DNA from: Chloroflexota bacterium
GTDB lineage: Bacteria; Chloroflexota; UBA11872; VXOZ01
Direction of reading: 5' to 3'
NCBI GenBank assembly: GCA_026710945.1
Contig: JAPOQA010000031.1
Span: 50,611 to 114,610 of the forward strand
Length of the DNA stretch: 64,000 bases
Each line of letters begins with the position of its first letter. The stretch's first letter is position 1. Under the pieces are notes generated by a model. That model worked only from the letters and a program-made list of their open reading frames with translations, had not been told where the DNA came from and made no database searches. The translations under genes were made by a program, and so were the position numbers. Of this stretch, positions 38,295-53,566 are shown in pieces.

Positions 38295-39551
38295 ATGTCT
38301 GAATCTCCTAATGGCGGTGTCGGCATCGTGCTGTTGGCCGCGGGGGAGTCCCAGCGGATGGCGGCCTCGTCAACGTCGTCATTGCCGAAAGCGCTGTTGC
38401 CCTGGTTCCGCAGACCGCTGATCCAGTACCAGCTTGAGCAAATTGCAGCGGTCGCCCCGGCGCACGTCGTTGTCGTTACCGGGTTTCATGCCGAGCGCTT
38501 AGCGCCCTACGTTGACGCTGTGGCGGGCATCCATGTAGTGAAAAACCCGAATCCGGAGCGGGGCAGAGCTTCCTCCATTGTGCACGGAGTGCGGGCGCTG
38601 CCCGAGACTCTGTCTGCCATCGCAGCAATCAACGTAGACCAGCCTTGTGCTGCGCCAATTCTCGCAAAACTCATTGCCGCAAGGGCCACAGGCAACCATC
38701 TCATTGCGATCCCGCGGTATCAGGGCGTGCGAGGACATCCTCCACTCTTCGCCAACGCTTTGCGCAGTGAATTGCTGCAGGTTCACGAGAATTCCCAGGG
38801 CCTGAAAGCGGTCACCCGGTCCCATCGCGCAGCAACGGCGTTTGTAGACATCGATGATCCCAGCGTGGTGTGGAATCTCAATACACCGGCTGACTATTAT
38901 CAAGCGCAGCAACAACACATTCTGCTTGCTACAACGAATAGCGCCAAGACCGAGCACCTCGCATGGCTGCTCGAAGGTGTGCCGCTTCGGCGCGTTACGT
39001 TGGCAGAGGCGGGACTACAAAGTGAGTCGCCCCCTTCGGAAGACCAACCAACACTACAAGCAATTGCCGCAAGCAAAGCGATTGCGTGGTCGCGGTCATT
39101 TGGCGGATTGGCGCTTGCATCAGACGGCGGCATTTCTATACCAGCGTTAGGCGACTCTTGGGAAGAGCGCTTAACGGCCCGCTTTGCAGGCAGCCAAGCC
39201 ACAGACAAGCAGCGCGTAGAAGCGCTGTTGGCACTGCTTCGACCCTACCGCTCAGAGGAACGGCTCGCGTACTTTCGTGAGTGCGTAGCACTTGCGAACA
39301 ACGGAACCCTCTTGCAGTCGTGGAGCGCCGAGAGTGCGCCCGGCTTGATCGCCGAGACCTATCGCCCGGACCAGCTCGTCTCCGGTTTTTGGCTGCTGAC
39401 ACTGTGGTGCGACCCGCAATCCGGCAAGCGTCTCGGCGTATTCACACCTGATGACCCTGCGTATCCGGACGGGGCTTGGGCAAGCCTAAAACCCAGCGTG
39501 CGGCAGTTCTTGCTGGGCTATCTTGAGCGCTACCTCAATCCGGCAACGTAA
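38295..39551 (+). CDS. fusion protein: MobA-like nucleotidyltransferase N-terminal domain plus Ham1/RdgB-like (non-canonical NTP pyrophosphatase) C-terminal domain
   Basis: 418 aa; the N-terminus (VLLAAGESQRM...KALLP) matches MobA/MocA-type NTP transferases; the C-terminus has Ham1 motifs (ILLATTNSAKTEHL resembles ATGNxGKxxE; ALASDGGISIPALGD; GFWLL resembles GFGYDPIF). Confidence 0.55.
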   Translation: MSESPNGGVGIVLLAAGESQRMAASSTSSLPKALLPWFRRPLIQYQLEQIAAVAPAHVVVVTGFHAERLAPYVDAVAGIHVVKNPNPERGRASSIVHGVRALPETLSAIAAINVDQPCAAPILAKLIAARATGNHLIAIPRYQGVRGHPPLFANALRSELLQVHENSQGLKAVTRSHRAATAFVDIDDPSVVWNLNTPADYYQAQQQHILLATTNSAKTEHLAWLLEGVPLRRVTLAEAGLQSESPPSEDQPTLQAIAASKAIAWSRSFGGLALASDGGISIPALGDSWEERLTARFAGSQATDKQRVEALLALLRPYRSEERLAYFRECVALANNGTLLQSWSAESAPGLIAETYRPDQLVSGFWLLTLWCDPQSGKRLGVFTPDDPAYPDGAWASLKPSVRQFLLGYLERYLNPAT

Positions 39552-44083: not shown

Positions 44084-45427
44084 ATGACCAGAATACGCTC
44101 TCTCTTGCCCCTCCTAGTTCGCTTCACTACCCACACTCTAGGTGTGCGGTTTCTGCTTGCCTTGGCGATCTCAATTACATTGTGGATCTTGTTCACCGGA
44201 GAGCAGAATCCCGTGCGTGAGGGCTTCTTTAGCGCGGAGATCCCAGTTGAAACAAGCCGCCTAGGCGATGGCTTGGTAGTGAGCCGTACCGCGCCGAGCA
44301 CGGTACGCTTGCGCATAGCAGCCCCGCGTGACATTTGGGAGTCCCTGACCGCCGACAAGTTCAGCGCCGTGGTGGATCTCTTTGCGGTTGGTGTCGGCCT
44401 GCACGAGATACCTATCGAAGTTGCTAGTTCTGACGGACGCATTAGCATCATCGCAACTGACCCGGAGACCATAACGGTTTCATTAGAGGAGCGAAGAGAA
44501 AAAGAGGTGCCGGTGCGCGTAGACCTCGTGGGTGACCCACCGGAGGGCTACAGATTTCAACTCCCAGAGTTGCTGCCAGACCTCGTTAGCATAATAGGAC
44601 CGTCCTCTCGGGTGGACTTAGTCGATGCGGTTTGGGTCAGTGTGGAGATGGATGAAGTGCGCAGTACCGTCAATCTCACAAAGCGAGCAATACCGCGCGA
44701 CGCCCAAGGAGAAGACGTAACCGGAGTGCAGCTTGATCCACCTGTGGTTCAGGTGACGGTACCGGTAGAGCTAGCAATAACAAACAAAGACGTCCCCGTT
44801 CGTGTCAATATTGTGGGCCAGCCTGCGCCAGGCTACTTGCTCTCACGCTATCTCACCACACCGGCCACGGCGACACTCATTGGCTCGCCTGAAGTGCTTA
44901 ATGGCCTGCTCTATCTGTCTACCGAGACCATTAGCGTCGAGGGAGCCACAGGAACGGTTACACAAACACTTGAGTTGGTGCAACCGCCGGGTGTAGCAGT
45001 CGCAGGCTCCAATGAAGTAGTGGTCACCATATATGTTGTGCCTATTGTGGCAAGCGTGCAGACCCAGGTCGCCGTAACCGCCTTGAATCTGCGGCCAGGT
45101 TTGGAAATAGAGGTGTTCCCTCCCACTGCGTCGGTAACGCTCGGCGGTCTGGCGCCCTTGCTCCGAGAACTTCAGCACGGCAGCGTGATCGTGTCTTTGA
45201 ACCTCAGTGGTCTGGGCCCCGGCTCCTACGCGTTGTCGCCTGACACGAACGCGCCCACCGATGTGAAGGTTGAGAGTATCAATCCATCGCAATTTATCGT
45301 GGTCGTGCGTGACCAGACGACGTCTGCACCAGCCCCAGTGCCTGCTGAATCTCCAACTCCGACAGAAGAGCCGCCGCCTGCTACGCCGACACCGGCCCCT
45401 GATGCGTCCGCCACTTTGCGCCGCTGA
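44084..45427 (+). CDS. cdaR: CdaA regulatory protein CdaR (YbbR-like repeat protein)
   Basis: 447 aa; N-terminal TM helix followed by four YbbR-like repeats; Pro-rich C-terminal tail; 9 nt downstream of cdaA. Confidence 0.8.
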   Translation: MTRIRSLLPLLVRFTTHTLGVRFLLALAISITLWILFTGEQNPVREGFFSAEIPVETSRLGDGLVVSRTAPSTVRLRIAAPRDIWESLTADKFSAVVDLFAVGVGLHEIPIEVASSDGRISIIATDPETITVSLEERREKEVPVRVDLVGDPPEGYRFQLPELLPDLVSIIGPSSRVDLVDAVWVSVEMDEVRSTVNLTKRAIPRDAQGEDVTGVQLDPPVVQVTVPVELAITNKDVPVRVNIVGQPAPGYLLSRYLTTPATATLIGSPEVLNGLLYLSTETISVEGATGTVTQTLELVQPPGVAVAGSNEVVVTIYVVPIVASVQTQVAVTALNLRPGLEIEVFPPTASVTLGGLAPLLRELQHGSVIVSLNLSGLGPGSYALSPDTNAPTDVKVESINPSQFIVVVRDQTTSAPAPVPAESPTPTEEPPPATPTPAPDASATLRR

Positions 45428-45724
45428 CGTTGGGATGCCGGCCCACACTGCGCATCACGATGCGCGGACTCTTCGCAAGACAGAGCGCTTGTCACACGTC
45501 GCGACACGTTTTTCTCTCTTGGTCGTTTCCTGCTATAGGGCAGTCTATCGTCTCCATTTCGAGGCTTGAATCCCTCGGGCCATCTTTGGGTGAGTGCCGC
45601 AGGATGCTATACTGAACGGACGCTTGGAGAGAGGCAAGACGGTTGTTTCTTGCGCCCCTCCTTGTATGGTTTTCCATGGCTTCCCCTGCCTGAACTACGT
45701 ACCTTAGAGAGATAAGCCGACATC

Positions 45725-47200
45725 GTGGTCAAGTGGTCGTACACGCCCCGCGTGCAAATTGTCGGGCGGGCGGCAAGAAGCCCTGAAGCTATCACGGCCG
45801 GCATGGCGCGCATCAGTCGTGACCCGACGCCTGTGCCCCAACTCATCAAAGAAGCGCGCGACAACACAGCCATGGCCCGTCTGCGCAACCAGCGAGTTGT
45901 GTACGAATACGGGCACAATAGCGTCGCGGAACATGGTTGTTTCAGCGCCGCCATTTGGGACATCCCCCGTCTGCTTTCGCTGGAAATCGTGCAGCACCGG
46001 CTGGCGGCGTACACGCAGCACAGCGGACGGTATATCCCCTTTGAGGAAGTGCCGCGCCAATTCTATTTGCCTAGGGAATACCGTCGCGGCAAGTCGCGGC
46101 GCCTCTTCGAACAGGCAGTAGCCCAGAGCTACACAGCCTATCGCAAGCTCTATGCCGGCTGCACCGCCTATCTTCTGGAAAAGTATCCCCGCATGCGCGC
46201 TTCCTCGGCTGAACGCCGTGCCACGGAGGACGCGCGCTACGTCTTGCCCCTGGCGCAGACAACCCAAGTGGGGGTAACGACGAACGCGCGTGAATTCGCC
46301 CTTATGATCACGCGGCTGCTCTCATCACCGCTCCCTGAATTCCGTGAAACCGGTGAGAAGCTCTTTGCCAGCCTCCATCCGATTGCACCCTCGCTCTTTC
46401 CGGAAAAGTATATCCGTGCACTGCCTTACCCTCAGAGTGGACGCGATGCCATTCGGAAAGCGGCAGCGGCGCTTGGCATTGCCCCGGCGCCGAATGTCCG
46501 CAATTCTCCCAGGGCCGACCGGCCCGCACAACCGACAGCCAAAGACCCGGTGCGGCTCGTAGGCTATGATCCGGACGGTGAGCGGCACGTAGCCGCGGCG
46601 CTGTTGTTTCACAATTCACAAACGACTCTTGCCGACGCGCAGCAGGCGATAGCACGCCTTGATGCCGACCAAGTGGGCCAATTCATCCGGTCTGCCTACC
46701 GCGGACTGCATGCCCACGACACTGTGCTACGCGAATTCGAATTCCTTCGCTACCAGTTTGAATTGGTGATGTCGGAAGCCGCGTATCACCAGTTCATTCG
46801 CCACCGCATGAAAACTGAGATCTCTCAGTCCCACAGCCCCACGCATGGGCGCACGCTTCCGCCGCTTATTCGGAATGCCGGCTTTGCAGACGAGTACAAT
46901 CGCACGCTCGATCTCTTGGAAGAGACGTACCACGCTCTTGGCGCCGACAAGCGTGCTGAAATCGTACTTGCCAACGGGCACAACCTCCGCATCCTGGCAG
47001 ACCTCAACGCGCGCGAAGTCGTGGAAATATCCCGTATTCGCAGCGACCGCCACGCGCAGTGGGACATTCGCAACATCTCCGATGCGATTGCCGCCGCCGT
47101 GTCGCGCGTTCATCCGCACGTGGGATTGGCTTGCGGCGGGCGTGACTCATTCAAGGACGGTACTGCCGCCGTACTGCCGGATACTTCCATCTTGACGTAG
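45725..47200 (+). CDS. tandem-duplicated flavin-dependent thymidylate synthase (ThyX-ThyX fusion) with complementary motif degeneration
   Basis: 491 aa; GTG start; the N-half has EYGHNSVAEHGCFSAAIWDIP...QHRLAAYTQHSGRY...ARYVLPLAQTT; the C-half has FEFLRY...IRHRMKTEISQS...RSDRHAQWDI; each half aligns to a full-length canonical ThyX. Confidence 0.65.
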   Translation: MVKWSYTPRVQIVGRAARSPEAITAGMARISRDPTPVPQLIKEARDNTAMARLRNQRVVYEYGHNSVAEHGCFSAAIWDIPRLLSLEIVQHRLAAYTQHSGRYIPFEEVPRQFYLPREYRRGKSRRLFEQAVAQSYTAYRKLYAGCTAYLLEKYPRMRASSAERRATEDARYVLPLAQTTQVGVTTNAREFALMITRLLSSPLPEFRETGEKLFASLHPIAPSLFPEKYIRALPYPQSGRDAIRKAAAALGIAPAPNVRNSPRADRPAQPTAKDPVRLVGYDPDGERHVAAALLFHNSQTTLADAQQAIARLDADQVGQFIRSAYRGLHAHDTVLREFEFLRYQFELVMSEAAYHQFIRHRMKTEISQSHSPTHGRTLPPLIRNAGFADEYNRTLDLLEETYHALGADKRAEIVLANGHNLRILADLNAREVVEISRIRSDRHAQWDIRNISDAIAAAVSRVHPHVGLACGGRDSFKDGTAAVLPDTSILT

Positions 47201-47289
47201 GAATTGCGCCAACCTCGAAGTCAGCGTGCCCGCTTTCAAGCCTGAAGGCTAACCGGCCTTCCGCGCGTGCTCTTCGTTCCTTCCAATTG

Positions 47290-47319
47290 GGCTTCACTAC
47301 GGAAATTGCCTATAATGGA
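47290..47319 (+). promoter_or_regulatory. candidate recA promoter (TTGGGC, 18-nt spacer, TATAAT)
   Basis: A perfect -10 hexamer TATAAT lies ~70 nt upstream of the recA ATG; AAGGAG RBS 14 nt upstream of the start. Confidence 0.35.
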
Positions 47320-47387
47320 GAATGCTGAATTTAACTTACACGATAGAATAATCGGAATCCCACAGATCAAGGAGTGGGTGCATTACC

Positions 47388-48473
47388 ATGGCTAGGCGAA
47401 CGAAGACTACTGAAGAAAATGGCGTGGAGGGACGTACCCAGGCTCTGCAGGCCGCGATCAGCCAGATTGAGCGTCGTTACGGCAAAGGCTCGATCATGCG
47501 CATGGGCGAAGAGGCAGGTGTGCCTGTTGCTGTCGTTCCTACCGGCTCACTATCGCTGGACCTGGCGCTGGGAGTAGGCGGCTTGCCCCGGGGCCGCGTC
47601 GTCGAGATTTACGGCAATGAGGGCAGCGGCAAGACTACCCTGGCCCAGCACGTCGTGGCTGAAGCGCAGAAACTCGGTGGCACTGCTGCTTTTGTGGATG
47701 CCGAGCACGCGTTCGATCCCACCTATGCCGCTAAGTGCGGCGTTGGCATTGAAGAGCTACTTGTTTCCCAGCCGGACAATGGCGAACAAGCTTTGGAAAT
47801 CGCCGAGATGCTGGTGCGCAGCAATGCCGTCGATGTAATAGTGGTCGACTCTGTAGCGGCCTTGGTACCGAAAGCCGAAATAGAAGGCGAAATGGGCGAC
47901 GCCCACATGGGCTTGCAAGCGCGGCTGATGTCCCAGGCGCTCCGCAAGCTTACGGCCGCAATCAGCCGTTCGCGCACAGTGGTCATCTTCATCAATCAAG
48001 TGCGCGAGAAGATCGGCGTGATGTTCGGCAACCCGGAGACCACGCCGGGAGGGCGCGCGCTCCGCTTCTACTCGTCGGTGCGCGTAGACGTTCGTCGTGT
48101 TGACTACGTGAAGAGCGGACAGGAGCAGGTAGGCATCCGCGTGCGCGCCAAGGTCGTGAAAAACAAGGTGGCGCCGCCGTTCCGAACGTGCGAATTCGAC
48201 ATTTTGTTCGACGAAGGGATTTCCAAGCTGGGCGATCTCATCGACCTCTCGACCGAGTATGGCATCGTGCGCAAGGCAGGGGCGCACTACTCGCATGGTG
48301 ACACGCGCCTCGGCCTCGGGCGTGAAAACGTCCGCAATTTCCTCAAAGAGAATACCGACATCGCAGAAGCAATTGAACTGGCAGTGCGCACACAAGCACA
48401 GGCATCCCTCGCCGACACTCCCGCGGACGAGGTTGTCGAGGCGATGGCAGACACCGAGACTGCAGCGCAATGA
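47388..48473 (+). CDS. recA: recombinase RecA
   Basis: 361 aa; Walker [10 protein letters not shown]; L1/L2 loops; typical RecA N-terminus ([22 protein letters not shown]). Confidence 0.95.
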
Positions 48474-49855
48474 ACCGACGCTTTTACATTACCCTGGCAT
48501 TCATTGTCGTATTCGTCTCGCTGGCAAGCTATGTCAATTGGCCCGGCAATCCAGGTCTCAACCTCGGTATCGGCAATTCGCGCCTTGTGCGCGACCTCCG
48601 CTATCACTTAGGCCTCGACCTGCAGGGCGGTCTCCATGTAGTGTTGCGAGCCACTCCCGCGGAAGATCAGAACATCACGTCCGACCACATGGAAGCCACA
48701 CGGGGTATCATTGCCGAACGCGTGAATGCCTTGGGTGTCTCGGAGCCCATCGTGCAATTGGAGGGCACCGACCGCATCATCGTCGAACTACCCGGCGTAG
48801 CTAACCCGGATGAAGCCATCGCACTCTTCCGCGAAACCGGCGAACTTGCCTTCGTTGACCTTGGCAGAAGTTCAGTCCCACCCATTCAGGTAGGCGGGCT
48901 CGTTGAAGGTGAGCAGTATCGGAGGCTCTTCACCGGGGCTATGGTTGAGTCTGCGGAAGTCGGCTTCGATGAGCGCAGCCTGCCGCAGATCAACTTTGAA
49001 CTCAAAGATGAAGGCGCGGTAATCTTCGAAGAGTTTACGTCTCAAAACGTCTGTGTACGCTCAGGCGGCTCACCGTGCACCTGGCTGGGCATTACGCTCG
49101 ACAACTACCTAATCTCTGCTGCTACGATCTCGAGTACCATCTCAAACCGCGGTCGCATTACGGGGAACTTCACCCTGGAAGAAGCGCGTGATATTGTCAT
49201 CAAACTGAAGTACGGCGCCCTGCCGGTACCGCTGGAAATAGCACAGAACCGAACCGTTGGCCCTACGTTGGGCCAAGACTCGGTTGACCGCAGCCTCCGG
49301 GCCGGAATTATCGGCTTGGCGCTTGTTGCCACCTTCATGTTGATCTACTATCGTATGCCCGGCCTGGTAGCAGTTGTCGCCCTGCTGATCTACGCGCTCT
49401 TAGTGCTTGGTATCTTCCGGCTGTGGCCGGTCGTGCTCACGCTCGCAGGTATCGCCGGATTCATCCTCTCCGTTGGTATGGCTGTGGATGCCAATATCCT
49501 GATTTTCGAGCGTCTGAAGGAAGAGCTGCGCCGGGGCAGATCCTTGCGCTCCGCCCTTGACGTCGGCTTCGATCGTGCTTGGACGTCGATCCGAGACTCC
49601 AATATTTCCACGTTGATTACGTGCGCCGTGCTCTTCTATTTTGGTACGGGCATCGTGCGTGGTTTCGCCGTCACACTTGCGATCGGCGTAATCATAAGCA
49701 TGTTTACGGCGATTACGATAACGCGCACGTTTCTTTACGTCGTGGTACGCCTCCCGCAACTGCGCGACCATCCGTGGCTCTATGGTGTTGGTCAGGAAGA
49801 AGAGCCATCTCCCGAGCCTCGCCAAACACCGCCGCAGCAAGCAACGGAACCATAA
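48470..49855 (+). CDS. secD: protein translocase subunit SecD
   Basis: 461 aa; GLDLQGG motif; periplasmic domain followed by a 6-TM RND-like C-terminus; ATGA overlap with recA. Confidence 0.9.
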
Positions 49856-49869
49856 GTAGTGAATCCTCG

Positions 49870-51357
49870 ATGTCGCTAGAATCTCGCCCCATAGACTCTG
49901 TTCGTGGGATGCTGGACCTCGACTCCCAGCAGACCCACGTGCAAGCTCAACTGCGGCAATCTCTGCTCGATGCCTTCCAACTCGCAAGCTATGTCCCCAT
50001 CGAAGTGCCGCTGGTGGAGCAGGCTGATCTCTACTTGCGCAAGTCCGGCGCCGAGACAATCTCCAAGATGTACACCTTTGAAGACTTCGGCGGACGTCGC
50101 TTGGCGTTGCGCCCGGAACTCACCGCCTCAATCGTTCGCTACTACCTGGGAAACGATCAGAACTCCACTTTCCCGCTGCGATATGCCTACTCTGGGCCGG
50201 TGTTCCGCTACGAAAAACCGCAACGCGGGCGTTTTCGCCAGTTCTCGATGGCAGGCGTAGAGCTACTTGGTAGTGACGGGCCGTCCGCCGATGCCGAGGT
50301 GATAGCGTTAGCGTGTTGGACGCTCAAAAGACTTGGCATCGCACAATACCGGCTCGTTATCGGTCACGTTGGCATTCTCTTGGAATTACTTGGCAGCTTG
50401 GGACTTTCGACCCGTTTGCGGCACTTTCTCCTCGACAGCATGGAAGACGTGGGGAGGCCCGGGCGGGGCCTGGGCTACGTGCGCAAGCGCCTGGAAGAGA
50501 TCCACCCTAACCGGCGGGCCGCAGCAACGACACAAGAGTCCTTTACCGGCTCCGAGGAGCAGGCACAAGCCACGCTGCGCGCATCGTTGCAGGAGATGGG
50601 AATCGAGCTCGACGGCAGCCGACCGGCAGAGGCAATACTCGGCCGGATGTTTCGCAAACAACGCGCTTCCGATGAAGATGAGCGGCTGGAACGCGCATTT
50701 GAGTTTATCCAAGGCTTGCACGACCTTTCGGGAGCACCAGGGGAAGTGCTGGAACGCGCACGAAAGTTTCTGGAGTCATTTGGCTTAGGCGACCAGCCCC
50801 TTAGCCGCCTTACTGATGTGGTGGCGGCGCTCCATGCCTATGGCATTGAGGATTCTCACGTGCAAGTGCAACTCGCTCTCGGGCGCGGCCTCCATTACTA
50901 CACCGATGTGGTGTTCGAGCTGTACGACTCAACAGGCCAGAGCCAGTTGTGTGGCGGCGGCCGCTACAACGAACTTGTGCAATCCCTTGGCGGGCGCAAG
51001 TCCGTTCCGGCGGTGGGATTCGCGTTTGGCCTGGAGCGCCTCCGGCTGGCTTTGGACGAGCAAGGCGCTGCGCCGCCGGCTCCGCCGCCAACGCAGGTGC
51101 TTGTGGCTGCAGCCAGCACAGGCGCCACACACGCCAGCATGCAAACAGCGCAGCGGCTCCGGGAACAGGGCATCAGCGCGGAACACGACCTGCGGCAACG
51201 CGCCGAGCGTGCGCGCATTGGCTACGCCAATCGGAGGGGAATCCCTTTTGTCCTCTTAGTAGAGGACAAAAATGACACCGCAATCCTGCGTAATCTATCC
51301 GAAGCCACCGAACAAGCGCTTTCATTGGGTGAAGTGGTGCAGGTGCTCAATGGCTGA
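49870..51357 (+). CDS. histidine--tRNA ligase family protein (HisS, or HisZ-type regulatory paralog)
   Basis: ORF 49579..51357; start at ATG 49870 after the secD stop; class-II aaRS motif 2 (LRPELTASIVRYY, FRYEKPQRGRFRQF) and motif 3 (CGGGRYNELV); C-terminal anticodon-binding-like domain; stop overlaps the hisG start. Confidence 0.7.
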   Translation: MSLESRPIDSVRGMLDLDSQQTHVQAQLRQSLLDAFQLASYVPIEVPLVEQADLYLRKSGAETISKMYTFEDFGGRRLALRPELTASIVRYYLGNDQNSTFPLRYAYSGPVFRYEKPQRGRFRQFSMAGVELLGSDGPSADAEVIALACWTLKRLGIAQYRLVIGHVGILLELLGSLGLSTRLRHFLLDSMEDVGRPGRGLGYVRKRLEEIHPNRRAAATTQESFTGSEEQAQATLRASLQEMGIELDGSRPAEAILGRMFRKQRASDEDERLERAFEFIQGLHDLSGAPGEVLERARKFLESFGLGDQPLSRLTDVVAALHAYGIEDSHVQVQLALGRGLHYYTDVVFELYDSTGQSQLCGGGRYNELVQSLGGRKSVPAVGFAFGLERLRLALDEQGAAPPAPPPTQVLVAAASTGATHASMQTAQRLREQGISAEHDLRQRAERARIGYANRRGIPFVLLVEDKNDTAILRNLSEATEQALSLGEVVQVLNG

Positions 51358-52366
51358 AGCGCTGCGTCTGCTCGTGCCAAGCAAGGGCCGCATTGGGGAG
51401 CAAACACTGGATTTCTTCGCCAGGTGCGGCCTTGACGTCGTGCGTCCAAATTCGCGCGCATATGAAGCGACGTTCCCGACAGTTCCCAACGTGGCGATCC
51501 TCTTTCAGCGCGCGTGGCAAATGGTCGAGCAAATTCGCAACGGTGACGCCGACGCCGGCATTACCGGCTTTGACATTCTGTCTGAAATGCGGCAAGAAGG
51601 CGACAATCTCGTGGTCGTCGCGGAAGACCTGGGGTACTCCCAGGGGAGACTCGCCATTGCGGTACCGGAGGAATGGATAGACGTTCGTACCTTGACCGAC
51701 CTTGCCGAAGTGGCGCTAGAGTTTCGCGAAAGAGGCCGGGTACTGCGCATTGCCACGACCTTTCCTTCCCAGACTCGCCAGTTTCTCTTCCAGCAGGGCA
51801 TCACGTACTTCCAGGTTGTGCAGGCCGAGGGCGGTCTGGAGGCGGCGCCGACTCTCGGCTATGCCGATATCATCGTTGACTTGGTTTCCACGGGCGCAAC
51901 GCTCAAAGACAACCGGCTCAAGATGATCGAACATGGGGTCATTTTGGAAACGCAGGCATGTCTTGTCGGAAATCGAGAACGACTGCGCGCGAGCGCTGCC
52001 AAGCGGGAGGCGCTGCGGCAGATCCTGGAACACATAGAAGCTTCGCAAAGCGCCGAACCATACTCGACGCTTACCGCAAACATGCAAGGAGACTCTGCAG
52101 AGGCAATCGCGGCCAAGCTAGCGGCATTTCCGGAAGTCGGCGGTCTGCTCGGCCCAACAATTGCTCGAGTATTTGCCAGAGATGAGCAGGACGATTCGTG
52201 GTTCGCGGTAACCGTCCAGGTAAAGTCCAAGGACTTGCTCTCTGCTGTGGCAAGCTTGCGGCAAGCGGATTGTATGAGCGTCTCCGTTACCTCTCCGCAC
52301 TACATCTTTGCGCGGGAGAGTTCCCTTTACCGCGGCCTTCTCCAGACACTGAAATTGGAAGAATGA
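51350..52366 (+). CDS. hisG: ATP phosphoribosyltransferase, long form with C-terminal regulatory domain
   Basis: ORF 51272..52366; start at MAEALRLLVPSKGR; motifs DAGITGFD and DLVSTGATLKDN; C-terminal HisG_C-like ~90 aa. Confidence 0.85.
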   Translation: MAEALRLLVPSKGRIGEQTLDFFARCGLDVVRPNSRAYEATFPTVPNVAILFQRAWQMVEQIRNGDADAGITGFDILSEMRQEGDNLVVVAEDLGYSQGRLAIAVPEEWIDVRTLTDLAEVALEFRERGRVLRIATTFPSQTRQFLFQQGITYFQVVQAEGGLEAAPTLGYADIIVDLVSTGATLKDNRLKMIEHGVILETQACLVGNRERLRASAAKREALRQILEHIEASQSAEPYSTLTANMQGDSAEAIAAKLAAFPEVGGLLGPTIARVFARDEQDDSWFAVTVQVKSKDLLSAVASLRQADCMSVSVTSPHYIFARESSLYRGLLQTLKLEE

Positions 52367-52672: not shown

Positions 52673-53566
52673 ATGTTTGACATTGTCGGCCGCAGGAAGT
52701 GGGCTTACGTTGTATCAGCGGTAATAATCGTTCCGAGTATTCTTTCGCTCATCTTCTTCCGCTTGCAACCAGGTATCGACTTTTCTGGCGGTACTATCTA
52801 TGAACTACGCTTCGACGCCACACCAACTACCGAGGAAATCAAGCGCGTCTACCTGAGCCTCAATCTTGGCGAGCCACTTGTGCAGGCGACAGGTGAGGGC
52901 ACGGTCATTATCCGTTCAAAGGAACTTGGGCTGGAGGATAAGCAAGCCGTGCGCGGCGCTCTGGAAGAGGTAAACGGCCAAGCTGAGGAGCTGCGCTTCG
53001 AAGCTGTGGGACCCGTGATCGCCCGGGAACTCACCCAGAGAGCCATTCTCGCGGTGCTGGTAGCATCAGTGGGTATTCTTGTGTACATCACGTGGGCGTT
53101 TCGCCACGTACCCCAACCTTTCCGCTATGGCGTCTGCGCGATCTGCGCGCTTGTCCACGATGTATTGATCGTGTTGGGCGTATTCTCCGTGCTGGGTTTC
53201 CTGGTCAATAAAGAGATCGACTCTATGTTCATTACGGCCATTCTCACCGCCATCGGCTATTCGGTGCACGATACGATCGTGGTCTTCGACCGTGTGCGTG
53301 AGAATCGCTCCAAATATGCCTATGCGCCCCTTCCCACCGTCGTGAACTTCAGTGTCAATCAGACGATCGACCGCTCGTTGAACACGTCCATCACGTTGCT
53401 CATTACACTCTTTGCGCTTTACCTCTTTGGGGGTCTGGCCATCAAGGACTTCGTCCTGGCGCTCCTGATCGGCACGGCAACAGGTACCTATTCCTCGATC
53501 TTCATTGCCGCGAGCCTGCTGGTGGATTGGGACGTCTTCTCTCGGCGTCAGGTTGAGGCGTCGTAG
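52673..53566 (+). CDS. secF: protein translocase subunit SecF
   Basis: 297 aa; GIDFSGGT motif followed by a 6-TM domain. Confidence 0.9.
   Translation: MFDIVGRRKWAYVVSAVIIVPSILSLIFFRLQPGIDFSGGTIYELRFDATPTTEEIKRVYLSLNLGEPLVQATGEGTVIIRSKELGLEDKQAVRGALEEVNGQAEELRFEAVGPVIARELTQRAILAVLVASVGILVYITWAFRHVPQPFRYGVCAICALVHDVLIVLGVFSVLGFLVNKEIDSMFITAILTAIGYSVHDTIVVFDRVRENRSKYAYAPLPTVVNFSVNQTIDRSLNTSITLLITLFALYLFGGLAIKDFVLALLIGTATGTYSSIFIAASLLVDWDVFSRRQVEAS

Follow-up and report, generated by a model that had tools for sequence, protein, structure and literature searches.

A double-length ThyX of Chloroflexota whose two fused domains seem to divide the active-site residues between them

How would an enzyme that normally builds each of its active sites from three subunits assemble those sites if two ThyX domains were fused into one chain and had become different from each other? 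This question is raised by the thyX gene at positions 45725 to 47200 of a 64-kb stretch of DNA from a Chloroflexota bacterium (64,000 nucleotides of contig JAPOQA010000031.1; hereafter the window, in which all positions are given), which encodes a double-length form of flavin-dependent thymidylate synthase (ThyX). The original prediction, made from the letters of the DNA, saw in it a tandem ThyX-ThyX fusion in which each half has lost a different active-site motif, and envisaged either fewer, asymmetric active sites or a diverged activity on another nucleotide. Our analysis points to the former. We consider it probable, while far from certain, that the protein is a housekeeping flavin-dependent thymidylate synthase in fused form, converting deoxyuridine monophosphate (dUMP) into deoxythymidine monophosphate (dTMP) with flavin adenine dinucleotide (FAD), reduced nicotinamide adenine dinucleotide phosphate (NADPH) and methylenetetrahydrofolate (CH2H4folate), and that it would act as a dimer in which the roles at the active site are divided between the two kinds of domain.

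The two-domain build of the protein is as follows (aa, amino acids):

45725 to 47200, forward strand: thyX, tandem (double-length) form; 491 aa plus stop, GTG start, unbroken open reading frame (ORF)
45779 to 46393, forward strand: N-half Thy1 domain, aa 19-223, a near-canonical ThyX; 104 bits against Pfam when scanned alone
46394 to 46552, forward strand: inter-domain linker, aa 224-276; a helix at aa 237-249 plus a disordered stretch
46553 to 47119, forward strand: C-half Thy1 domain, aa 277-465, a specialised ThyX; 82 bits against Pfam when scanned alone

The whole 491-aa protein matches the Pfam family Thy1 (PF02511) in two stretches with 176 bits (E=8e-52), the cut-off of this family being 24.8 bits, and it scores 119.5 bits against the NCBIfam equivalog TIGR02170 (thyX), which has a cut-off of 87.9. 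The curated cut-offs are thus exceeded, placing the protein in the ThyX family (EC 2.1.1.148). When the halves were scanned separately, the N-half was aligned with positions 8-191 and the C-half with positions 1-191 of the 191 positions of the Thy1 profile, each with a score above the Pfam cut-off, and the claim of two ThyX domains in one chain is therefore borne out.

The two halves do not match each other in a BLASTP comparison. Nevertheless, alignment of their family profiles with hhalign, each profile being built from 114 family members, gave a probability of 96.7% (E=4e-10) over 188 columns with 18% identity. Since the halves match by profile and not by BLASTP, the duplication or fusion that joined them must be old. 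The AlphaFold2 single-chain model, based on an alignment of 95 sequences, has a mean predicted local distance difference test (pLDDT) score of 93.6 and a predicted template modelling (pTM) score of 0.91; strands and helices follow one another in an identical order in both halves, and the N and C domains are packed together. The linker lacks conserved columns in the family alignments, and its pLDDT falls below 50 at aa 258-270. In a Foldseek search, ThyX chains of Mycobacterium tuberculosis (Mtb) and Thermotoga maritima (Tm) were matched with a probability of 1.00 and a target-normalised template modelling (TM) score of about 0.74, showing that the protein has the ThyX fold. All fold matches in the PDB are ThyX chains with a single domain (from M. 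tuberculosis, Corynebacterium glutamicum and T. maritima); no tandem ThyX was present among them, the best query-normalised TM-score being 0.38 and all targets having at most 246 residues. An exact-sequence look-up did not find the protein of the window on record, and a protein 97% identical to it is encoded, with the same neighbours, on a 6.7-Mb metagenome contig.

What each half may contribute to catalysis can be judged from the canonical enzyme, in which three subunits contribute to every one of the four sites (PMC5954106). In the Mtb enzyme, subunit A provides the RHR triplet 95-97 (FAD phosphates, ribityl and isoalloxazine) and Arg199 (dUMP), subunit B provides Ser71 and Arg190 (FAD), and subunit C provides Arg87, Ser105, Arg107 and the Tyr108 lid (dUMP) (PMC6514825). 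In the Tm enzyme, Arg174 activates dUMP, and Ser88, Arg90 and Tyr91 matter kinetically (PMC8316439). We mapped the N-half onto Mtb ThyX (profile match with E=4.4e-26), the chain numbering of which is the native one, with H69 and R95-R97 on the expected letters, and the C-half onto Tm ThyX, its best match (E=4e-12), the chain numbering of which is the native one plus 12; the hhalign alignment of the N-half with the C-half served as a third source. All conservation counts given below come from a hidden Markov model alignment of 194 non-identical members of the tandem-ThyX family.

The relevant segments of the two halves are the following:

45911 to 45934, forward strand: GHNSVAEH of the N-half, aligned with GHFSVLEH of Mtb ThyX
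45992 to 46033, forward strand: QHRLAAYTQHSGRY, aa 90-103, the N-half ThyX motif, with Gln for the first Arg of RHR
46226 to 46240, forward strand: EDARY of the N-half, in which R171 corresponds to T. maritima R147 in the alignment to Mtb and Tm ThyX
46310 to 46342, forward strand: TRLLSSPLPEF of the N-half, in which R197 corresponds to Mtb R199 and Tm R174, and E205 to Tm E182
46799 to 46849, forward strand: RHRMKTEISQSHSPTHG, aa 359-375 of the C-half, with RHR intact and then a degenerate substrate loop
47039 to 47068, forward strand: RSDRHAQWDI, aa 439-448 of the C-half, aligned with LRADSHAQWEIQ of Tm ThyX

The three strings on which the original prediction was founded, namely QHRLAAYTQHSGRY, RHRMKTEISQSHSPTHG and RSDRHAQWDI, are thus all present in the protein. 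In the N-half, most residues of the canonical site are found in every one of the 194 family members: H64 (Mtb H69, Tm H53), S66 (Mtb S71, Tm T55), E69 (Tm E58), R82 (Mtb R87), R92 (Mtb R97), S100 (Mtb S105, Tm S88), R102 (Mtb R107, Tm R90), Y103 (Mtb Y108, Tm Y91) and R189 (Mtb R190), together with E168, D169, R171 and Y172 of the EDARY segment and E205, while R197 is found in 189. What varies in the N-half are the RHR-type residues, among them the first two positions of RHR itself. Position 90 is K in 95 members, R in 45, S in 19, A in 16, H in 11 and Q in 4, and position 91 is F in 113 and H in 74; as triplets, KFR is the commonest (93 of 194), followed by RHR (32), SHR (18), AHR (15) and QHR (3). 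The QHR that had been singled out as the loss of the N-half is indeed there, but it is specific to the lineage, being found in 3 of the 194 members at positions that vary throughout the family, and in the closest relatives (83-89% identity) the N-half reads RHR and carries the full signature. Similarly, the proposed loss of the HAQWE segment from the N-half holds only in part: TRLLSSPLPEF lacks the His, Gln and Trp of HAQW, but its Arg (R197) and Glu (E205) are kept. In the family, the position of Tm H178 (201) is H in 79 members, S in 47 and L in 35, the position of Tm Q180 (203) is L in 179, and the position of Tm Q75 in the N-half is E or D. It should be noted that the canonical ThyX of M. 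tuberculosis itself has HADVE, not HAQWE, at the aligned segment.

The C-half shows another pattern. Here, Q356 (Tm Q75) and the three residues of RHR (R359, H360 and R361) are each found in 194 of 194 members, and R430, R439, Q445 and W446 each in 193; R439 corresponds to Tm R174, and H443, found in 171, corresponds to Tm H178. The substrate loop, on the other hand, is degenerate. The loop of the window protein, RHRMKTEISQSHS, contains no loop Arg or Tyr and has a two-residue deletion just before the positions of Tm S88 and R90. Within the family the former position (367) varies between A, S, V and others, and the latter (369) between D, A, P, E and others, whereas RHR never varies, as the claim that the C-half has kept RHR and lost the dUMP loop would have it. 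Of the residues nearby, Q368 is found in 190 members, and position 370 is Y in 124, H in 39 and R in 28. Elsewhere in the C-half, the position of Mtb R87 is occupied by A, E or S, that of Tm R147 by P, E, A or S, that of Tm H53 by V, A or L, and that of Tm T55 by an invariant Arg (R336). These losses do not result from misalignment, because the comparison of the C-half profile with Tm ThyX and the hhalign alignment with the N-half agree on their placement.

Taken together, constraint on the RHR-type residues is relaxed in the N-half and absolute in the C-half throughout the family. Each half of the window protein lacks different canonical residues, and to this extent the loss is complementary, as predicted; it is not symmetrical, however, for the C-half is much more degenerate than the N-half. 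The C-half is a strongly specialised domain, whereas the N-half is a near-canonical ThyX, as is also seen in the profile matches (E=4e-26 for the N-half with Mtb ThyX, E=4e-12 for the best match of the C-half). The signature RHRxxSxxxxSxR(Y) is complete in neither domain of the window protein and becomes complete only as a composite of both halves. The same applies to the extended active-site set (Mtb H69, S71, R87, R190 and R199; Tm R147 and Q75), which is complete across both halves: H64, S66, R82, R189, R197 and R171 are carried by the N-half and Q356, R430 and R439 by the C-half, all of them in 189 to 194 of the 194 relatives. In addition, each half contains signatures of its own that are invariant or nearly so in 95 to 194 relatives, namely ARISR, GH.S.AE, RL..YT..S.RY and EDARY in the N-half, and D..LRE.E, Q..RHR, N.H..R and R.R.D.HAQW in the C-half.

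Placing these residues on the canonical tetramer, we find that those invariant only in the C-half all belong to role A, and that those lost from the C-half all belong to roles B and C. From the residue counts it follows that all losses fall within one pair of the four pockets, and from this conservation pattern together with the published structures we infer the oligomeric state, the three-dimensional role of each domain and the enzyme activity itself: the protein is predicted to be dimeric, with two active sites in the dimer and one FAD bound by each chain. Two 491-aa chains would form a pseudo-tetramer of four ThyX domains (two N-halves and two C-halves) that mimics the homotetramer. The C-half would take the role of the subunit that contributes RHR, with Q356 and R359-H360-R361 binding the phosphates, ribityl and isoalloxazine of FAD and the phosphate of dUMP, and would also provide R439, the dUMP-activating residue (Arg174 or Arg199 in the canonical enzymes), and H443-A-Q-W. 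One N-half would contribute the dUMP loop and lid (R82, S100, R102, Y103 and R171), and the other N-half the residues on the FAD and folate side (H64, S66, E69 and R189). Complete sites would then exist only in the combination of C-half, N-half and N'-half, that is, two per dimer, so that each chain would account for one FAD site and one dUMP site. The reciprocal pockets, made of N-half, C-half and C'-half, would be without the dUMP loop, Arg87, Arg147 and the His/Ser pair, and should not support methylation of dUMP. In a D2-like assembly, the two-fold axis could be placed in three ways, only one of which would give complete sites; the favoured axis would exchange A with D, the two C-halves, and B with C, the two N-halves. 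The other two placements are disfavoured because the invariant RHR of the C-half would face dead loops, and because the variable RHR of the N-half would then be needed for catalysis, contrary to its conservation. Thus, judging by residue conservation, the fewer and asymmetric composite sites that had been proposed are the likely outcome.

Several observations weigh against this division of roles in its simple form. Firstly, two residues of the subunit-A type, R92 (194 of 194) and R197 (189 of 194), stay invariant in the N-half, and two of the subunit-B type, R430 and E339, stay invariant in the C-half. Secondly, six invariant residues of the C-half, R336, S350, N417, H419, R422 and R437, are without a canonical counterpart. 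Invariant residues in the incomplete pockets are not what would be expected if the second pocket were wholly dead. Thirdly, our assignment of roles leans on a review of the Mtb and Helicobacter pylori structures, in which the subunit that contributes Tm R147 is unstated. The loose-end invariant residues may be structural, or they may belong to a second pair of pockets with another ligand. A particular form of the latter idea, which we regard as rather unlikely, is that the degenerate pockets have been rebuilt as a new ligand site, for instance a basic pocket for NADPH or a regulatory nucleotide, which would be lined by R92, T97 and R197 of the N-half and by R336, Q368, N417, H419, R422, R430 and R437 of the C-half. 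If true, the protein would be a ThyX with a mechanism of its own, keeping reduction or regulation spatially apart from methyl transfer.

In favor of the dimer with two composite sites, there is also the selection on its two domains. In comparisons with five relatives, the ratio of nonsynonymous to synonymous substitutions (dN/dS; Nei-Gojobori) is 0.03-0.05 in the N-half and 0.055-0.097 in the C-half, whereas the linker reaches about 0.35; these values are approximate, as dS is near saturation. Both halves are thus under strong purifying selection, and because their ratios are well below that of the linker, both domains are maintained and neither is decaying.

This result bears on the first of the alternative explanations, according to which the N-halves alone are catalytic: four chains would associate through a canonical tetramer of N-halves with four ordinary sites, and the C-halves would have a scaffolding or regulatory role. 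The N-half is indeed well equipped for this. H64, S66, E69, R82, R92, S100, R102, Y103, R171, R189, R197 and E205 are all invariant or nearly so, its profile matches Mtb ThyX with E=4e-26, and in the closest relatives it has a full RHR. However, the first two positions of this RHR vary freely in the family, with KFR as the commonest form and QHR in the window protein. Furthermore, the essentially invariant RHR, Q356, R439 and HAQW of the C-half would be odd for a passive scaffold, the dN/dS of the C-half is below 0.1, and AlphaFold2 packs N with C (pTM 0.91), as would be expected for a pseudo-dimer. We therefore think it improbable that catalysis is left to the N-halves.

A second alternative is that the protein is a paralogue with another activity or substrate, such as a methylase of uridine monophosphate (UMP) or deoxycytidine monophosphate (dCMP) like PolB, or a hydroxymethylase, and is not the thymidylate synthase of the cell. 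The original prediction had left room for a different nucleotide substrate, and there are three points in favor of it: neither half has the complete ThyX signature, the PolB structure 4P5B is found at rank 29 of the fold matches, and the C-half has invariant residues of its own whose role is unassigned. On the other hand, the residues that contact dUMP are all invariant in the N-half and the equivalog cut-off of TIGR02170 is exceeded, which speaks against this part of the prediction. In addition, the N-half profile matches Mtb ThyX (E=4.4e-26) far better than PolB (4P5A; E=3.4e-9), and the neighbouring genes cdaA, ybbR, recA and secD are housekeeping genes and do not form a nucleoside-antibiotic cluster. 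Neither of the features of a PolB-type protein, that is, a closer relationship to PolB than to ThyX and a location in a biosynthetic cluster, was found for the window protein. Finally, according to published surveys, most Chloroflexi have no thymidylate synthase other than the duplicated form (PMC3224940, PMC5954106). Another substrate therefore seems to us a slim prospect.

The genomic setting agrees with a housekeeping enzyme. In the window, the genes are ordered carbamoyltransferase - cdaA - ybbR - thyX - recA - secD, and the same order is found in the five closest genomes (80-85% identity), which are metagenome-assembled genomes (MAGs) of Chloroflexota, and not in other phyla. As the order is limited to a close Chloroflexota clade, it indicates a housekeeping context and nothing special about the function. 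Neither ThyA nor a second ThyX was found in the 64-kb window or in 81 related loci. It has been reported that Chloroflexi other than Dehalococcoides have duplicated ThyX as their only thymidylate synthase (Valas and Bourne 2009, PMC3224940), and in a COG survey covering nine Chloroflexi genomes, all nine had ThyX and two had ThyA (PMC5954106). Given the protein sequence and this setting, the most economical reading would be that the gene encodes the thymidylate synthase of the cell, in a housekeeping role.

The last alternative, an artefact of assembly or a frameshift that joined two canonical thyX genes, is practically negligible, because the frame is continuous, because the same architecture, length and synteny are found in five related Chloroflexota genomes, complete or draft, and because the architecture recurs in hundreds of other genomes, with many homologues of 460-530 aa; the one hint in its favor, a stand-alone-looking C-type protein (P0208), is itself due to a run of N in the linker.

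This protein of 218 aa was inspected as a possible stand-alone C-type ThyX and rejected: the run of N splits a normal tandem gene (L081:1913-3657), the N-half ORF of which lies just upstream at 1913-2905. Other short stand-alone C-type matches exist among the results of the C-half profile search and look like fragments. No genuine split form, with N-type and C-type domains encoded by two genes, was seen; the single short C-type match that was inspected was the artefact just described.

How widespread is the tandem form? A degenerate-pattern scan with one genome per species found at least 368 relatives of 460-530 aa. Among the matches listed, the phyla and groups represented are Chloroflexota, Syntrophales/Smithella, Omnitrophota, Planctomycetia, Acidobacteriota/Aminicenantia and Calditrichia, and further Krumholzibacteriota, Gemmatimonadota, Margulisiibacteriota and one Methanosarcinales MAG. 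When the C-half profile was compared with 1.84 billion cluster representatives, 447 clusters (at 50% identity) were matched at E<=1e-30, nearly all of them in the C-terminal half of proteins of about 500 aa. The gene of the window is therefore an ordinary member of a widespread, uncharacterised tandem variant of ThyX, and not an exotic one. It is correctly annotated as ThyX, an annotation that does not set the tandem form apart from ordinary ThyX.

Tandem ThyX proteins were also observed in archaeal MAGs (Nanoarchaeota, Methanosarcinales and Thermoproteota); they are about 31-36% identical to their bacterial counterparts, an observation that suggests transfer between domains of life. Two further homologues carry intein-like inserts within motifs of the N-half: P0259 (797 aa), in which the ThyX motif is split as 'WHRLC / ... 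HN / CSFTEKSQRY', and P0266 (795 aa), with the split 'GH / ACYD ... CGN / SVAEH' (slashes mark the borders). The inserts include stretches that resemble HNH or LAGLIDADG sequences, and their location within N-half motifs is consistent with these motifs being functionally critical.

Around the gene itself, a 297-bp intergenic region (45428-45724) lies upstream of thyX, and only a weak purine-rich stretch precedes the GTG start. No promoter-like or terminator-like sites were found in 45350-47450, and no Rfam family scored above its gathering score in the whole 64 kb (no tRNA, rRNA or riboswitch). Farther downstream, secD (48470-49855) and secF (52673-53566) are about 2.8 kb apart and neither adjacent nor fused; the gap between them holds an ORF (49579-51357) and hisG (51272-52366). 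In another part of the window, positions 38295-39551 (forward strand) encode a 418-aa protein that combines a MobA-like nucleoside triphosphate (NTP) transferase domain (aa 12-178) with a domain resembling Ham1/inosine triphosphatase (ITPase; aa 209-354), an unusual-looking pairing.

ThyX is essential in many bacteria and is a drug target, and the structural and mechanistic work on it has all been done on symmetric homotetramers, in which any mutation affects all four three-subunit sites together. In a natural fusion, it is fixed which part of the site comes from which domain, and the tandem form could thus be an asymmetric system that allows the side of the site formed by RHR and Arg174 and the side formed by the Ser-Arg-Tyr loop to be mutated separately. 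It could also serve to find out if all four sites are required by ThyX and what function the spare pockets have. Moreover, it is apparently the main or only thymidylate synthase in uncultured Chloroflexota, Syntrophales, Omnitrophota and some archaea.

How does the tandem ThyX compare with systems already known? The 'duplicated ThyX' of Chloroflexi is the same thing as the gene of the window; the duplication was noted, as uncharacterised, by Valas and Bourne in 2009 (PMC3224940), and theirs is the only report linking ThyX with a domain duplication that we found in the open-access literature. The sequences show this division of roles between the halves clearly, and we found no description of it in the open-access literature searched. 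What is new beyond the note of 2009 is, therefore, the wide spread of the tandem form and the division of active-site roles that the residues of its halves indicate.

The canonical homotetrameric ThyX, as represented by TM0449 of T. maritima (PDB 1O26 and 4GT9) and Rv2754c of M. tuberculosis (2AF6 and 3GWC), has the same fold and belongs to the same Pfam and TIGRFAM family. However, it has one domain per chain and four sites, whereas the tandem form has two non-identical domains per chain and, as predicted from its residues, two complete sites. A member of the family from Chlamydia trachomatis was reportedly characterised by Griffin et al. in 2005. The chlamydial ThyX, with about 529 aa, is possibly of the tandem type. 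If it is of this type, an active representative of the tandem form has been known since 2005, and the novelty of the present case falls. Chlamydial ThyX was too divergent for early phylogenies and was left out of them (PMC6171736), and it was active in NADPH-oxidase assays (PMC3498832). Other relatives with a ThyX fold, which were matched by sequence and fold, are the Thy1 protein of Thermus thermophilus (PDB 6J61), which has an extra C-terminal domain, the atypical ThyX of C. glutamicum (PDB 3FNN and 3GE9) and the UMP/dUMP methylase PolB (PDB 4P5A and 4P5B); all of them have a single ThyX domain per chain, and nothing added to it is a second ThyX domain. A parallel outside the family is offered by the monomeric dUTPase of herpesviruses, in which the fold of the trimeric dUTPase has been duplicated and fused, and the copies have lost complementary motifs, leaving fewer composite sites. 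By analogy, the tandem ThyX would resemble it in having sites built from several subunits, in the duplication and fusion, and in the complementary loss of motifs. The two differ in that their fold and chemistry are unrelated, and in that the herpesvirus enzyme is a monomer with one site, whereas the tandem ThyX is predicted to be a dimer with two.

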